64,000 nt of DNA from a bacterium (GTDB lineage Bacteria > SZUA-79 > Acidulodesulfobacterales > Acidulodesulfobacteraceae): the NCBI GenBank assembly GCA_021822485.1, contig JAKAQP010000002.1, positions 10,120 to 74,119 on the forward strand, read 5' to 3'. Below are positions 24,817 to 56,673 of this stretch, in pieces. The first letter of the stretch is position 1, and each line of letters opens with the position of its first letter. The position numbers were made by a program, and so were the translations under genes. The notes beneath the pieces were generated by a model. That model did no database searches. It was not told the origin of the DNA and worked only from the letters and a program-made list of their open reading frames with translations.

Positions 24817-24855
24817 CCTATTTGTGACAGGGTCAGAATTGAATTCTGCCCCTGT
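24817..24855 (-). repeat. palindromic box-hairpin element, copy A
   Basis: CCTATTTGTG box, then the 14+1+14 palindrome ACAGGGTCAGAATT-G-AATTCTGCCCCTGT (one T:C mismatch). It ends 2 nt before the ATPase stop codon. Confidence 0.8.
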
Positions 24856-24857
24856 AT

Positions 24858-27191
24858 TTATTTCAGTTTTTCCATCAGGGGTTTCTTGATGTAGTCTAAC
24901 GCAACCATATAAATAAAAGTCGCCGCAAGCAGTATAAATATATATGTGAAAGGAACTTTAGCCATGAGTATGCCGAAACCCGCCATTAAAGTTATAATTA
25001 TTAAATCTAAAGCGCTTGCAATCATCAAATAGTTTCCCGGCTTAGAACTCCAGAAATGACGTTCTTCTCTTACTAAATAAACGGTTGCCTGTGCGCTGAA
25101 TACTAAAGATAAAAACGTAAATGTTTGAACCTCAGGCAAGCTCATTCCTATAGAGTAATACCCGATATAATATGAAATAAAAGAATAAATCAGCCATGCT
25201 CCAGCTATTATAAGAGATGCCGATACTATAAGTTTTATTTTCCATTTATCCGGTTTATTGGAATATACTGCATTGTCTTTAGCTATAGACATAGTTACAA
25301 AATCGTTCGCAAAAATCAATATAAGAATAAGTTTTGGAGTAGTAACGAACTTCCCGAAAAATATAAGACCTAAACTCAAAAAAAGAGCAACCTGAAAAGT
25401 TTTTGATATTTTATTTAAAGTATAAGTCAGCATTCTCCTGTAAACCATTCTGCCGTATTTTACGGCATCCACGATATTTGCAAGACCCGGTTCCGTCAAT
25501 ATCAGGCTCGCCGATGCCTTTGCAACGTCCGTGGCATTAGCTACGGCAATGCCGACCTCCGCCTGTTTAAGCGCAGGTGCATCGTTTACTCCGTCCCCAG
25601 TCATTCCGGTAATCTTTTTTAGTTTCTGCAAACCCTGTACGAGATGAAACTTGTCTTCGGGGAAAACTCCCGCAAACACGTCACATCCGGATGGATTTTT
25701 AAATTTTTCTTTAGTGCAGACATTGTCCCCAAGCCCGATTAAGCCGGCAGTTGTTTTAGCGGTGAGTTCCGTATCTCCGGTAACCATACGCACTCTAATT
25801 CCTAATTTTTTAAGTTCATTTAATAATTTTTTAGAATCTTTCCTTGGAGGATCGGAAAGTCCTAAAATTCCGACAGCAAAATATTTATTTTCTTTTTCGT
25901 TTTTAATAGTTACTGCTATTACTCTATAACCCATAGCCTCGAATTTTTCGGATGCTTCTCTAAGTTTTTTTGCATCGTTTTCGTCGAGATTTTTTTCAAC
26001 TATTATAGGCGAACCTTTAATCGAACTAATTAATTTTTTTTCGCCTTTTTCAGATACTTCGAGCAATGCTTCCGCTCTTTTCGTCTGGGGGTCGAACGGC
26101 GTAAATTTAACCGTTTTTCCTATTTCCGGCAGGCTCAATTTATTGTTTTTTATGTAAGACAATATAGATAAATCTATGGGGTCCTGCGTAGATTCATCTG
26201 ATGCCGCCGCTGCGTAAGCAAAAAGTTCATTTTCGCCGAAAGGTTCAATCGGTTTAAAATCCGTAAGAAAAAGCGCATTTTCAGTTAAAGTGCCGGTTTT
26301 ATCGGAACATAATTCTTCCATAGATGCAATATCTTCTATTGCTGAAAGATGCGTTACCAATATTCCTCTGTTTGCAAGTTCCATAGAAGCAAGCGCTGTA
26401 GCCAAAGTAAAAGTAACCGGAAGAGCGACCGGTATAGACGCTACTAAGAGGATTAAAGCAAAGGGCAGCATTTCGGCAAAATTCAATTTGTATATAAGGG
26501 CGTATGCAAGTATTAAAACTACGAGAATGCCGTCAATCATAATAAAATAGCGTACGATTTTTAAAATTAATTCTTCTATATGGCCCTTAGTTTTTGCCGA
26601 TTTTATAAGTTCCGCCGTTTTCCCGAAATAGCTTTTTTCACCGGTCGCCGTAACCTTGCAGGTGGCTTCTCCTCTTTTAATTACGGAACCGGAATATACG
26701 AGTCCGCCTTCGTTTCTATCTACGGGCTGAGATTCTCCGGTTAAAGCCGACTGGTCAACCAATACGTTACCGGAAATAATTTCGGTATCCGCCGGAACCA
26801 AATCGCCCATTCGTACGTGAATTGCGTCTCCCGGAACCAATTGTTCCGCACTTAATTTGACCCACTTTCCGTCCCTTAAAACCCTGGACATAATTTTTAA
26901 CTGCTTTTTCAAAAGTTCGAGAGCTTTTTCAGCCTTATTTTCCTGCTGAAAAGATATTATAGCGTTAAATAGGATTAAACCGATAATAATATATGCTTCT
27001 ATGTTTTTTCCGAGTATTAATTCGATAATAAAGGTAAACTCAAGCATCCACGCAACAGGATTCCAAAATTTTAAAAGAAAAATTTCGACGGGATGCTTTT
27101 TTTTCTCTTTTATTTCGTTTAATCCATAACGTTTAGTCAGTTCTTCTGCTTCCGAAGACGATAGCCCTTTAATTTCTTTGTCCATATCCAT
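24858..27191 (-). CDS. P-type cation-transporting ATPase, P3A (plasma-membrane H+-ATPase)-like
   Basis: DKTGTLT phosphorylation site, TGES, MVTGD, GDGVNDAPALK. N-terminal GLSSSEAEELTKRYGLNEI and a length of about 777 aa resemble prokaryotic P3A pumps. The ORF track starts at 27248, but the first 19 codons translate repeat copy B. ATG 27191 (MDMDKEIKG) has a GGAG 9 nt upstream. Confidence 0.85.
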   Translation of the reverse strand: MDMDKEIKGLSSSEAEELTKRYGLNEIKEKKKHPVEIFLLKFWNPVAWMLEFTFIIELILGKNIEAYIIIGLILFNAIISFQQENKAEKALELLKKQLKIMSRVLRDGKWVKLSAEQLVPGDAIHVRMGDLVPADTEIISGNVLVDQSALTGESQPVDRNEGGLVYSGSVIKRGEATCKVTATGEKSYFGKTAELIKSAKTKGHIEELILKIVRYFIMIDGILVVLILAYALIYKLNFAEMLPFALILLVASIPVALPVTFTLATALASMELANRGILVTHLSAIEDIASMEELCSDKTGTLTENALFLTDFKPIEPFGENELFAYAAAASDESTQDPIDLSILSYIKNNKLSLPEIGKTVKFTPFDPQTKRAEALLEVSEKGEKKLISSIKGSPIIVEKNLDENDAKKLREASEKFEAMGYRVIAVTIKNEKENKYFAVGILGLSDPPRKDSKKLLNELKKLGIRVRMVTGDTELTAKTTAGLIGLGDNVCTKEKFKNPSGCDVFAGVFPEDKFHLVQGLQKLKKITGMTGDGVNDAPALKQAEVGIAVANATDVAKASASLILTEPGLANIVDAVKYGRMVYRRMLTYTLNKISKTFQVALFLSLGLIFFGKFVTTPKLILILIFANDFVTMSIAKDNAVYSNKPDKWKIKLIVSASLIIAGAWLIYSFISYYIGYYSIGMSLPEVQTFTFLSLVFSAQATVYLVREERHFWSSKPGNYLMIASALDLIIITLMAGFGILMAKVPFTYIFILLAATFIYMVALDYIKKPLMEKLK

Positions 27192-27202
27192 ATTTATTCT
27201 CT

Positions 27203-27240
27203 CCAATTTGTGACAGGGGCAGAATTGAATTATGTCCCCA
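27203..27240 (-). repeat. palindromic box-hairpin element, copy B
   Basis: CCAATTTGTG box plus ACAGGGGCAGAATT-G-AATTATGTCCCCA. On the mRNA-sense strand its box region supplies the GGAG SD of the ATPase gene. Confidence 0.8.
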
Positions 27241-27244
27241 TTTT

Positions 27245-27283
27245 CCAATTTGTGACAGTGGCAGAATTCAATTCTGTTCCTGT
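27245..27283 (-). repeat. palindromic box-hairpin element, copy C
   Basis: CCAATTTGTG box plus ACAGTGGCAGAATT-C-AATTCTGTTCCTGT. About 88 percent identical to copy A over 50 nt, including the shared flank CCTGTATTTA. Confidence 0.8.
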
Positions 27284-44386: not shown

Positions 44387-45553
44387 TCAACCGCCCGCCC
44401 GCAATTTTAGCACGCCCTTTTTAATAGCGCTTACGGCATAATCTATATCGTCTTCCGTAGTATATCTTCCTATGCTGAATCTTATAGCCGACTCTATCCT
44501 TTTAGCATCGTATCCGTGAGCCTTTAATACGTGAGACAGGGAAATCGTTCCGGCATTGCAGGCGGAACCGGCTGAAGCGCTTATTCCGTAAAGGTCAAGA
44601 TTAAACAGAAGGGTTTCCGATTTGACGCCGTCGAAAGAAACATTCAAGGTATTTTTCAGCCTGTTTACGGGATTTCCGTTAAGTTTTATGCCTTCTATGC
44701 CGTAAAAAAGTTTGTCGTGAAAAATGCTTCCAAGCGAATTAATTCTCGTCAATTCGTCGTTCATGATATTTTTTAATAAACTTAAACCTTTCGCTATGGA
44801 AACTATACCCGCTATATTTTCCGTACCTGCCCTTAAACCTCGTTCCTGATGTCCGCCATGAATAATAGGCTCTATATTTACCCCTTTTTTTATATAAAGA
44901 GCTCCGCATCCTTTTAAAGCGTAAAATTTATGTCCAGAAAAACTGCACATATCCAAAGGAACGTCTTTTAGGCTGAAATGCGCTTTGCCTATAACTTGAA
45001 CTAAGTCGCTGTGGCAGATAACGTCTTCCTTAACTTTTTTAACCTCTTCAAAAATTTGTTTAATCGGAAAAAGCGTGCCGGTTTCGTTATTTGCCCCCAT
45101 AATAGAAACTAACGAGGTATTTTCCCTTATTGCTCCGGTTACTTCCTCGATATCGATCATGCCGAATTCGTTTACTCCGACATAAGTAGTTTCTGCGCCT
45201 ATAGATTCCAAGAATTTAAAGGTGTTTAATACCGCATGGTGTTCTACCGCCGAAGTTATAATATGCGGAACCTTTTTTTTGTTGTTTTTCATATAAGCGT
45301 AAACGGAACCCTTTATCGCAAGATTAATGGATTCCGAACCCGAAGACGTAAAAATAACTTCTCCTGAATTTCCTGCATCCAGAAAAGATTTGACTAAATC
45401 ACGGGAGTCTTCTATTAGTATTCTTGCGGCGCGCCCTTCTTCGTAAACCGAAGACGGATTGCCCTGATAATTTTTAAGTGTATTGACTACTTCTTCCAGA
45501 ACCGCCGGATCTACCGGAGTGGTCGCATTATAGTCTAAATAAATTCTTGTCAT
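44387..45553 (-). CDS. nifS: cysteine desulfurase (NifS/IscS class)
   Basis: 388 aa. PLP Lys in SFSGHKFYALKG, active-site loop SAGSACNAG. Confidence 0.9.
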   Translation of the reverse strand: MTRIYLDYNATTPVDPAVLEEVVNTLKNYQGNPSSVYEEGRAARILIEDSRDLVKSFLDAGNSGEVIFTSSGSESINLAIKGSVYAYMKNNKKKVPHIITSAVEHHAVLNTFKFLESIGAETTYVGVNEFGMIDIEEVTGAIRENTSLVSIMGANNETGTLFPIKQIFEEVKKVKEDVICHSDLVQVIGKAHFSLKDVPLDMCSFSGHKFYALKGCGALYIKKGVNIEPIIHGGHQERGLRAGTENIAGIVSIAKGLSLLKNIMNDELTRINSLGSIFHDKLFYGIEGIKLNGNPVNRLKNTLNVSFDGVKSETLLFNLDLYGISASAGSACNAGTISLSHVLKAHGYDAKRIESAIRFSIGRYTTEDDIDYAVSAIKKGVLKLRAGG

Positions 45554-45569
45554 ATGTTTCCATTTTATT

Positions 45570-45605
45570 CCATTTTGTGATAGTGCCGGAATTGAATTTT
45601 GGCAC
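45570..45605 (-). repeat. palindromic box-hairpin element, copy D
   Basis: CCATTTTGTG box, ATAG, then GTGCCGGAATT-G-AATTTTGGCAC (11 bp, two G:T pairs on the + strand). It lies 17 nt from the nifS start codon. Confidence 0.8.
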
Positions 45606-45610
45606 CTTAT

Positions 45611-45650
45611 CCCATTTTGTGCTAGTGCCAGAATTGAATTCTGGCACTAG
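45611..45650 (-). repeat. palindromic box-hairpin element, copy E
   Basis: CCCATTTTGTG box, then the perfect 14+1+14 palindrome CTAGTGCCAGAATT-G-AATTCTGGCACTAG. The outer arm contains the TAG stop of the Rrf2 gene. Confidence 0.85.
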
Positions 45651-46090
45651 GTTTTAGATGATGACAGTTTTTGTTTGTATTCGTCTATTACGTCTTGTAT
45701 AGTTATAGAACTAAGTAATTCGGTGATTTTCTTCGATACCGAATTCCACATATCGAAAGCTAAGCAGACCGATTTTCTGCCGCATTCTTTTTTTGCTTTA
45801 GATTTGCTTATACAGCTTGTAATTTCTATCGGCTCTACTGATTCTATTATATCTCCGATAAATAGCTCCGAAGGTTTTTTATTAAGCAGATAACCGCCGT
45901 TCGGACCTCTTAAACTTCTTACTATACCCGCTTTTTTTAAAGTAAAAAATATCTGTTCCAAATAGTGCAGGGAAATATATTCTCCGGCGGCAATATCCTT
46001 TAAACTTACCGGAACCGAGTTGTCCTTTGAATTATACGACAGATATATCAGCGCCCTTACGGCGTATTGACCTTTAGAAGAAAGTTTCAT
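45647..46090 (-). CDS. iscR: Rrf2-family transcriptional regulator (IscR-like)
   Basis: 147 aa. N-terminal wHTH (KGQYAVRALIYLS) and three clustered Cys residues (C-X8-C-X5-C region) suitable for an Fe-S ligand set. Confidence 0.85.
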   Translation of the reverse strand: MKLSSKGQYAVRALIYLSYNSKDNSVPVSLKDIAAGEYISLHYLEQIFFTLKKAGIVRSLRGPNGGYLLNKKPSELFIGDIIESVEPIEITSCISKSKAKKECGRKSVCLAFDMWNSVSKKITELLSSITIQDVIDEYKQKLSSSKT

Positions 46091-46743: not shown

Positions 46744-46850
46744 CTTCTGCGCAGTATATAAAAATATGATTAATACGAAATAATATTCCAAATATTTTTT
46801 ATATTTATCTTATTAATATAACAGAAATATAAAAAATATGAAAGATTATA

Positions 46851-51418: not shown

Positions 51419-51455
51419 ATGGGGGCTGAATTCAATTATGTCCCCATAACAAATT
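51419..51455 (+). repeat. palindromic box-hairpin element, copy F (solo)
   Basis: ATGGGGGCTGAATT-C-AATTATGTCCCCAT followed by AACAAATT (a degenerate box on the right-hand side). It lies in the divergent tolC / rimO spacer. Confidence 0.65.
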
Positions 51456-51594
51456 ATAACGTCGCATTGTTAATAAATAATTAATAAATTATAAATAGAA
51501 AAAATATAATGCATAATCATTAATTAAATAATGTTAATCAATAATAATCATAATGACTTTAAAGTCACTTGTCAATATAAATATTTCTGAGTAA

Positions 51595-56592: not shown

Positions 56593-56630
56593 GAGTATCG
56601 TAATTCAATTGCGGTACTCACACAAAATTG
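56593..56630 (+). repeat. palindromic box-hairpin element, copy G1
   Basis: GAGTATCGTAATT-C-AATTGCGGTACTC (13 bp, two T:G pairs) followed by the box ACACAAAATTG. It starts 9 nt after the hdrA stop. Confidence 0.75.
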
Positions 56631-56634
56631 AACC

Positions 56635-56673
56635 GTATGGATGGAATTAAATTCCGTCCATACCACAAAACGG
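56635..56673 (+). repeat. palindromic box-hairpin element, copy G2
   Basis: GTATGGATGGAATT-A-AATTCCGTCCATAC (14 bp, one T:G pair) followed by the box CACAAAACGG. It lies 22 nt upstream of the corrected flxD/mvhD start. Confidence 0.75.

Follow-up and report, generated by a model that had tools for sequence, protein, structure and literature searches.

The 64,000-nucleotide stretch of bacterial DNA analyzed here (the window; contig JAKAQP010000002.1 of assembly GCA_021822485.1, positions 10,120 to 74,119) contains eight copies of a short element, the box-hairpin, in which a conserved box stands on one side of a palindrome. Judging from sequence and from analogy with other lineages, we consider it probable that the box-hairpins are genus-specific, non-autonomous repeats of the REP (repetitive extragenic palindrome) kind, a two-tip derivative of the TIRtron that would be mobilized by a Y1 transposase of the TIRYT type. 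The terms TIRYT, for the gene, and TIRtron, for the unit, were introduced by Di Nocera, De Gregorio and Rocco (2013), in whose account many of the terminal inverted repeats (TIRs) share the motif GGGGWSAS, and some genomes contain moderately abundant TIR families that are sometimes self-complementary or dimeric (PMC3733652). TIRYTs, which are Y1/HUH tyrosine transposases similar to the REP-associated tyrosine transposases (RAYTs), correspond to TnpA_Y1 subclass 2.1, with the consensus GGGG[AT][CG]A[CG] (Quentin et al., 2018; PMC6006769). The hairpin of our element consists of two tips of 12-14 nt, GG(G/T)G(A/T/C)CAGAATT, which meet tail to tail at a single central nucleotide, and the tip GGGG(A/T)CAGA matches the published GGGGWSAS motif of TIRYT inverted repeats. 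Since the arms found in the window (GGGGACAG and GGGGTCAG, with GGTG... variants) fit this motif, we read the element as a two-tip TIRtron derivative. The original prediction, which favored a role in the mRNA, had named as the contrary outcome that the copies are terminal repeats of a known insertion sequence (IS) or miniature inverted-repeat transposable element (MITE), and the match of the arm tips to the TIRYT/TIRtron motif comes close to that outcome.

A dispersed family of at least eight copies had been predicted from the window. We searched the whole genome (1.6 Mb, 36% G+C, 95 contigs) with a covariance model, R1, comprising 48 positions with 13 pairs and built from 45 genomic copies. 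This census yielded about 82 non-overlapping loci, with E-values down to 1e-13, and the 12-mer GGKGWCAGAWTT occurs 75 times in the genome versus once for its reversed control, so the family is indeed dispersed and multi-copy. Its consensus, box first, reads TTTCCATTTTGTG, ACGGKGMCAGAATT, G, AATTCTGKCMCCGT and ATTTA in succession. In the window R1 returns exactly the eight predicted copies, all in their predicted places:

Copy A: 24817..24855, + strand (box-first strand), R1 score 66.5 bits.
Copy B: 27203..27240, + strand, 33.9 bits, directly 5' of the ATPase start.
Copy C: 27245..27283, + strand, 60 bits, in direct tandem with B (period 42 nt).
Copy D: 45570..45605, + strand, 52.5 bits, between the Rrf2/IscR-like gene (45647-46090, - strand) and the NifS-like gene (44387-45553, - strand).
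Copy E: 45611..45650, + strand, 63.4 bits.
Copy F: 51419..51460, - strand, 52.2 bits, with the degenerate box TTATAATTTGTT.
Copy G1: 56593..56630, - strand, 50.3 bits, between the HdrA-like and FlpD/MvhD-like genes.
Copy G2: 56635..56673, - strand, 40.8 bits, in direct tandem with G1 (period 43 nt).

The described architecture was also found to hold: a box CC(A/T)WTTTGTG (degenerate in F and G2), which in the window copies directly abuts the arm, an arm of 11-14 nt, the center AATT-N-AATT, and the complementary arm. Pairing was very high in the seed alignment (92.6% of cells, with double changes at 8 of the 13 pairs). As these seeds had been selected for palindromy, covariation was retested on 53 sites picked only by their AATTNAATT center and box score, without use of the arms. 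At the ten outer arm positions of these sites 86.8% of partners were paired, against 70.7 +/- 1.4% with shuffled partners, indicating that the proposed covariation of the arms is real. The accompanying claim that the outer arms differ completely between loci did not hold, as a few arm types (GGGGACAG, GGTGCCAG, GGTGACAG and similar) cover most copies. The central base was G in 39 of the 53 box-first copies and is thus tied to the orientation of the box; box and hairpin are therefore copied or inherited as one unit. The members of tandem pairs repeat in the same direction every 36-44 nt; such tandems account for 12 of the 46 loci with orientation-confident copies, none of which mixes orientations, and the arrays include truncated arms. 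At C12:3066-3205 of the same genome, four copies stand in direct tandem with a 37-nt period and alternating GGTGCCAG and GGGGACAG arm types, and the next box cuts short the 3' arm of each upstream copy.

The distribution of the family among related genomes was that of a mobile repeat. Of 19 species genomes belonging to one genus, most have R1 matches (0-126 each), and such matches are essentially missing from five sister genera and 16 other families. The carrier genus is probably Ca. Acidulodesulfobacterium; contig matches identify its members as metagenome-assembled genomes (MAGs) from acid mine drainage, including 'Candidatus Acidulodesulfobacterium sp. KM4364-02'. Five congeners are syntenic with the window at 88-94% identity (G001, G005, G013, G016 and G017), and among these the same spacers proved to be filled differently. 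At the iscR-nifS junction, G016 has an empty spacer, G001 and G013 have other inserts in it, G017 has one and a half copies, and G005 differs as well. Between hdrA and flpD there are no copies in G016, a box remnant in G005, one copy in G001 and G013, and two in G000 and G017. In the rimO spacer a copy occupies the position of F in G000 and G017 only, and another position in G005, G013 and G016. Relative to empty orthologous sites the copies appear as insertions of 30-66 nt, even inside genes. No direct target-site duplications were seen in the comparison of filled with empty orthologous sites; one candidate, the repeat AAATTAT at C66:31475, was dropped because it was not found at other copies. 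Copy numbers of 0-126 and orthologous spacers that are filled, empty or shifted indicate mobile or highly indel-prone DNA rather than a conserved regulator, and we regard it as very likely that the repeat family is, in general, selfish and mobile.

What could mobilize it? The original prediction noted that the window lacks a RAYT-type gene, and this stands for the window; the genome search, however, found one Y1 gene elsewhere, at C84:42073-42804, cut by the contig end. Its product matches PF01797 (C84:42508-42789), contains the NHVHLL and RYIELNP motifs, and has as its best NCBIfam match NF047646, 'REP-associated tyrosine transposase', at 71.6 bits, below the cut-off of 80. A structural model of the protein (predicted local distance difference test, pLDDT, 75) has its best structural match in 4er8, TnpA_REP bound to a REP hairpin (E = 5e-8), followed by the TnpA proteins of IS608 and ISDra2. 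A C-terminal helix-turn-helix (Bac_DnaA_C, HTH_23 or HTH_28) has been described for subclass 2.1 proteins (PMC6006769). In our protein no Pfam match to such a domain was obtained in the C-terminal part even at E <= 5; there is a conserved extension of about 100 residues with three predicted helices. The full-length gene of the genus encodes 246 residues.

The first form of our test for a link between this gene and the repeats, a search for whole palindromes adjoining Y1 genes, was negative. By contrast, a search with the tip motif revealed repeats that bracket the Y1 genes. At four loci of the genus (L005, L006, L008 and L009) the gene lies between inverted AATAAAGG(T/G)G(T/A)CAGATTTATTTATT repeats, one of them directly after the stop codon; the gene at L005 (1501-2238, minus strand) has its own TIR hairpin, AATAAAGGTGTCAGATTTATTTATT, and part of the genus has the motif in the form GGTGTCAG, with T at position 3. 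The same bracket occurs outside the genus, in Nitrospirae, Thermodesulfobacteriota and Gammaproteobacteria (L135, L138, L149 and L155), and at L155 the exact 25-nt palindrome lies 75 nt upstream of the Y1 gene. We then used 80 metagenomic loci encoding this Y1 clade, 68 of them evaluable, and the strict motif GGGG[AT]CAGA. The motif was present on both sides of the gene, forward upstream and reverse downstream, in 31 of the 68 loci, and on one side in 21. Its density was 2.5 per kb within 300 nt of the gene compared to 0.16 per kb beyond 600 nt, a 15-fold difference, and 95 occurrences had the expected orientation and 6 the wrong one. Some of these TIRs (L331, L257) read GGGG(T/A)CAGAAT(T/C). 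In other lineages, palindromes of 25-55 nt beside or around the Y1 gene are its own two TIRs joined tail to tail. In a panel of 41 genomes, the tip motif had 8-174 copies in all 19 genomes of the genus and in one sister-genus genome, and at most 6 elsewhere. The own genome contains 78 matches to the AAAGGTGTCAGA tip (at most one mismatch), belonging to several repeat types; the dispersed AAAGGTGTCAGATTTATTTATT... repeats among them carry the sequence of the Y1 gene's TIRs, and the window box-hairpin shares with these TIRs just the 9-12-nt tip.

Several observations weigh against a TIRYT enzyme as the agent. In 11 Y1 loci of the genus, R1 detected no box-hairpin within 1.5 kb of the gene; for this reason the link to the enzyme is drawn from the shared 9-12-nt tip and from the analogy with other lineages. 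Nothing corresponding to the 13-nt box is present in the TIRs of the Y1 gene. The Y1 clade was found in 9 of the 19 genomes of the genus and in one motif-poor sister genome. It was not detected in the high-copy MAGs G001 (98% complete), G013 and G016, and G006, a genome without box-hairpin matches, does have it. Finally, 4 of 12 "other-phylum" palindrome carriers have no Y1_Tnp match, two of these four being MAGs of the genus. Because the Y1 gene lies on short contigs or at contig ends, its loss from MAGs is plausible.

The hairpin core has a far wider distribution than the box. Species genomes from many phyla contain the exact 25-mer GGGGACAGAATTNAATTCTGTCCCC, at more than 119 positions in all and with flanking sequences that are unrelated; its carriers include Ca. 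Entotheonella, Nitrospirae, Gammaproteobacteria, Desulfobulbaceae, Desulfuromonas and Thermodesulfobacteriota, and among them the TTTGTG box is confined to the genus of the window. In three nearly closed gammaproteobacterial genomes the 12-mer GGGGACAGAATT has 74, 38 and 26 copies, compared to 0 for the control, and lies almost always in a palindrome with a center of 0 or 1 nt. The core had no match in a plasmid collection and one in a collection of viral contigs; with this near absence it does not look like a typical phage or plasmid signal. A full-text literature search for the core sequence returned unrelated primers only. In Ca. Entotheonella TSY1 (e.g., L050, L063, L131), dozens of composite repeats of about 100 nt, with the structure TCTCCCGGAAATCATGAAAAAGTCAAGAAGGCY-core-TCCGCAAGACGGAATTTTTCATAGGAGA, are centered on the 25-nt palindrome.

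Quentin et al. found no REP-like sequences near subclass 2.1 genes (PMC6006769). It is tempting to speculate, although we consider this doubtful, that the palindrome of 24-25 nt, two GGGGWCAGAATT tips with 0-1 nt between them, is the minimal substrate that TIRYT enzymes mobilize in trans and thus the 'missing REP partner' of subclass 2.1. It would then be conserved letter for letter in at least five phyla; the enzyme or template switching would maintain the perfect palindrome where it stands, even within essential genes, and this genus would have recruited the palindrome as stop-adjacent operon punctuation.

A core with a perfect dyad, identical across phyla as is parS, also raises the question of whether the palindromes might instead be double-stranded sites for a dimeric DNA-binding protein, a regulator or a parS- or Noc-like nucleoid or segregation factor recognizing CAGAATT-N-AATTCTG. 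The invariance of this core and its tens to about 100 sites per genome are in line with such a function. However, the outer arms covary for complementarity instead of each fitting a consensus, the copies arrive as insertions of 30-66 nt even inside genes, and their direct tandem arrays contain truncated arms. Sister species differ 100-fold in copy number, and when the open reading frames (ORFs) adjoining 125 cross-phylum copies were clustered, no common neighbor gene emerged, the top clusters being the translated repeat itself. We therefore regard this explanation as highly improbable.

The resemblance of the arms to two inverted ends could suggest another kind of mobile element, in which the arms would be the TIRs of a cut-and-paste DDE transposon, or of small hairpin elements with a GIY-YIG nuclease, and the box-hairpins their MITEs. 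In a gammaproteobacterial MAG (L217; OZ244846, 1097049-1098366), half-palindromes indeed flank a 1.3-kb IS5-family IS encoding a DDE transposase of 347 residues. This IS has its own TIRs (GGGAACCTCTAT...), however, and lies exactly in the AT center of the palindrome, where its TTAA duplication rebuilds the intact 25-nt palindrome. It was thus inserted into the palindrome, and we rejected it as a parent. Likewise, at L220/L221, a MITE of 180-420 bp is inserted exactly at the TA in the center of a 24/25-nt palindrome. The two cases indicate that palindromes serve as insertion targets, and REPs are frequent IS targets according to Tobes and Pareja, as cited in PMC3733652. The lack of direct target duplications and the asymmetry of the element, with its box on one side, also speak against a DDE origin. 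As for GIY-YIG partners, G002, G004 and a few other-phylum genomes are the only ones with the small ORFs, which are lacking in the high-copy genomes of the genus and nowhere flanked by the motif, so this candidate was also rejected for the box-hairpins. In the high-copy genomes the GIY-YIG matches are essentially UvrC, plus one weak match of 136 residues in G013, and G018 has merely a degenerate fragment of about 50 residues. In our estimation, an origin from DDE or GIY-YIG elements is improbable.

For mobilization by the TIRYT transposase we propose the following course. The enzyme would act in trans on single-stranded DNA at the replication fork, recognize the folded hairpin by its tip motif, cut alongside it and re-ligate it elsewhere. 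The one-sided 13-nt box would be carried along as the stretch between the foot of the hairpin and the cleavage site. A trans mechanism on single-stranded DNA would explain the one-sided box, the lack of target-site duplications, the strand bias described below and the direct tandems. The arms would remain complementary because the enzyme requires a hairpin, because quasi-palindromes are corrected by template switching, or for both reasons, and not through selection on RNA. Copies would survive mainly in short spacers, and many would consequently be found 2 nt past a stop codon or beside a ribosome-binding site.

The placement of the copies relative to genes was assessed with ORF-based proxy gene calls (1572 genes, covering 90% of the genome). 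Among 59 orientation-confident copies, from the 46 loci, 54 are intergenic and 5 lie inside proxy genes. The transcription-oriented placement claimed in the original prediction was confirmed: in spacers between co-directional genes, 23 loci are sense, with the order stop, hairpin, CACAAAATGG, start, and 7 have the opposite order (p = 0.005). The start codon did not turn out to be the regular reference point, as the distance from the center to the start codon varies from 21 to 270 nt among intergenic copies. The regularity lies with the upstream stop codon, since in 11 copies a TAA or TAG ends 16-17 nt before the center, so that the hairpin begins 2 nt later. Copy A is of this type: read on the - strand, in sense orientation relative to the P-type ATPase gene (24858-27191, - strand), the hairpin begins 2 nt past the ATPase stop, which is 17 nt from the center, and is followed by CACAAATAGG. 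The pair D/E lies between iscR and nifS as predicted, with the iscR stop (TAG within CTAG) in the arm of E. The suggestion that the box region of copy B supplies a Shine-Dalgarno sequence also proved right, as the box together with GAGAG gives a GGAG motif of this kind; the 3' arm of B is shortened by the box of copy C. Copy F is flanked by two divergent genes, one OEP/TolC-like and the other RimO/MiaB-like. The Pfam assignments in the window comprise P-type ATPase, NifS-like, Rrf2/IscR-like, HdrA-like, FlpD/MvhD, OEP and RimO/MiaB-like genes. Two candidate promoter features were dropped: a sigma-54 -24 box (CTGGCAC), which belongs to one arm type and is missing from the others, and a -10-like TAAAT, which is not common to the other flanks.

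These positions, inside operons such as iscR-nifS and hdrA-flpD, are what would be expected if the elements were primarily cis-acting RNA hairpins that stabilize or process the mRNA or tune translation, with their structure under selection at the RNA level. The consensus hairpin is also stable as RNA (predicted free energy, -21.8 kcal/mol). When REPs of E. coli lie near stop codons they reportedly lower expression (Liang, Rudd and Deutscher, 2015; PMC4427526, as cited in PMC6006769). The strand bias itself could stem either from transcription-level selection or from targeting of a replication strand: orientation agrees with GC skew at 27 loci and disagrees at 19, and the skew itself follows the gene strand. 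Against a primary function in RNA, the same operon junction has no, one or two copies among congeners, copy number within the genus spans 0-126, start-codon distances are broad, and the identical core recurs in distant phyla in unrelated contexts. Moreover, related copies are translated in frame inside enzymes, as detailed below. Mismatches in the arms, which would form G·U in one strand or the other, are balanced (27 G·T versus 25 A·C), leaving no RNA signature in either strand, and at the Rfam gathering thresholds the window contained tRNAs only, with no match to a cis-regulatory RNA family. A dedicated post-transcriptional role, as originally predicted, is thus unlikely as the primary explanation. 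For copies next to a stop codon or a ribosome-binding site, secondary effects on mRNA stability or translation are plausible and testable.

The in-frame relatives are palindromes lacking the box, AAAGG(G/T)GTCAGAATTNAATTCTGAC(C/A)CCTTT, which lie within folE2 and aroC outside the window (C2:84940-86057, L185), with a third copy between the two genes. They are translated as about 10 extra residues, KGSE(F/L)NSDPF: the insert reads ..AIKGSEFNSDPF.. in folE2, where it splits the Pfam match, and ..KKGSELNSDPF.. in aroC, encoding chorismate synthase. In the aroC loop (L186-L206) the arms vary by species and remain complementary (GGGGTC/GACCCC, GGTGTC/GACACC, GGCGAC/GTCGCC), and the palindrome measures 16 to 24 nt per arm, that of G010 being GGGGGGGAAAAAGGTGTCAGAATT C AATTCTGACACCTTTTTCCCCCCC. 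G012:C75 and G003:C1 lack the palindrome at this site, and in the low-copy genomes G006 and G004 it has decayed, including its core. This pattern suggests homogenization of the arms in place, by template switching or driven by the enzyme, while the family is active. Both G012 (C13 versus C75) and G003 (C79 versus C1) contain two diverged folE2-aroC regions, with and without the palindrome, which indicates strain mixtures or contamination in these bins.

Further repeats were encountered in the course of the analysis. A MITE of about 95 bp with inverted ends GAAAAAGGTGTCAGATT(T/A)TATTTTCCGCATACG has the same tip and is represented among the 78 tip-bearing sites of the own genome (e.g., C26:3714-3796, C36:18283-18364 and C41:63894-63976). 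The repeat AAAGGTGTCAGATTTATTTATTCYCTTACTCCCGACTGCGTTTGACGCGGTCGGGAGTTTT, which combines the tip motif with a GC hairpin and a T-run, occurs on C49, C71, C72 and C84 (41819 and 42010); it trails many small accessory genes, HEPN/MNT-like pairs and a PD-(D/E)XK Rpn-like gene among them, and the brackets of the Y1 transposase gene in congeners are made of this same repeat. One spacer in the window is an empty site of the tip-sharing MITE:

Empty site of the tip-sharing second repeat: 46744..46850, no strand assigned, empty relative to G017, G005 and G016.

The orthologous spacers of these three genomes contain inverted-repeat inserts of about 190-390 bp with ends GGAAAAGGTGTCAGATTTTATTTTC(C/A)GC, and G001 has a different insert there, also with AAAAAGGTGTCAGATTTATTTATT. 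An unrelated MITE-like insert with ends CCTTAATCCTGCATTAGAA occupies the iscR-nifS spacers of G013 (L183) and G001 (L181), and recurs in the G013 spacer orthologous to 46744-46850. In G005 (L164/L180), the iscR frame reads through the element, giving a longer C-terminus (164 versus 147 residues). The intergenic regions of the genus are crowded by several repeat families.

A likeness of the elements to REPs and BIMEs (bacterial interspersed mosaic elements) had been noted in the original prediction, and dispersed palindromes with a one-sided tag bear it out. To judge from the accounts cited in PMC6006769 (PMC2817692, PMC3116915 and PMC3479197), REPs, BIMEs and the REPIN-RAYT systems (REPINs being REP doublets that form hairpins) share with our elements the short, abundant, mostly extragenic palindrome with an unpaired conserved tag on one side. 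Also shared are the clustering at the 3' ends of genes, where a palindrome sometimes adjoins the stop codon or itself supplies it, the use as IS targets, and an associated Y1 transposase, for which TnpA_REP is the closest solved structure. The tag differs, being TTTCCATTTTGTG (TTTGTG...) directly 5' of the stem instead of GTAG or CGTC, and the stem has 13-14 bp closing on a tip of 1-3 nt where REP stems are imperfect, with bulges. The clusters are direct tandems and not alternating or inverted pairs, and unlike in a REPtron, the Y1 gene of the genus is not flanked by the box-hairpin itself. With the TIRtron the elements have in common a RAYT-like Y1 gene bracketed by GGGGWSAS inverted repeats, here GGGG(A/T)CAG, or GGTGTCAG in part of the genus, and dispersed repeat families of which some are self-complementary or dimeric; gene presence and repeat abundance are poorly correlated, as the authors who named it also saw. 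By contrast, the window elements keep just a duplicated tip of 12-14 nt and a one-sided 13-nt box missing from the TIRs of the gene, the motif reaches about 80-170 copies in genomes of 1.3-2.5 Mb, and the 25-nt core is identical in many phyla. The box-less relatives in surface loops of FolE2 and AroC, read in frame, recall the Rickettsia palindromic elements and intragenic REPs as summarized in PMC3733652, a likeness by description, although they measure about 31 nt against 100-150 bp. Taken by sequence and analogy, the box-hairpin would thus be of a known kind, REP-like and part of a TIRtron system; its form, extremely reduced and with a box on one side, would be new.

Our findings have practical consequences for the genomes concerned. 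The hairpins yield false N-terminal extensions and false ORFs in annotation, break MAG contigs in assembly, and insert loops of 10 residues into housekeeping enzymes; to read them as regulators specific to the iscR-nifS or hdr-flx operons would be a mistake. Within the HUH/Y1 superfamily, TIRYT transposases form a large and widespread branch that is functionally uncharted. If the link to these enzymes is true, the palindromes would be among the smallest mobile units known, and with about 25 nt they would offer a substrate for TIRYT enzymes that can be synthesized and tested in vitro. The same link would account for the recurrence of one palindrome in MAGs from sediments, groundwater, sponges and acid mine drainage.

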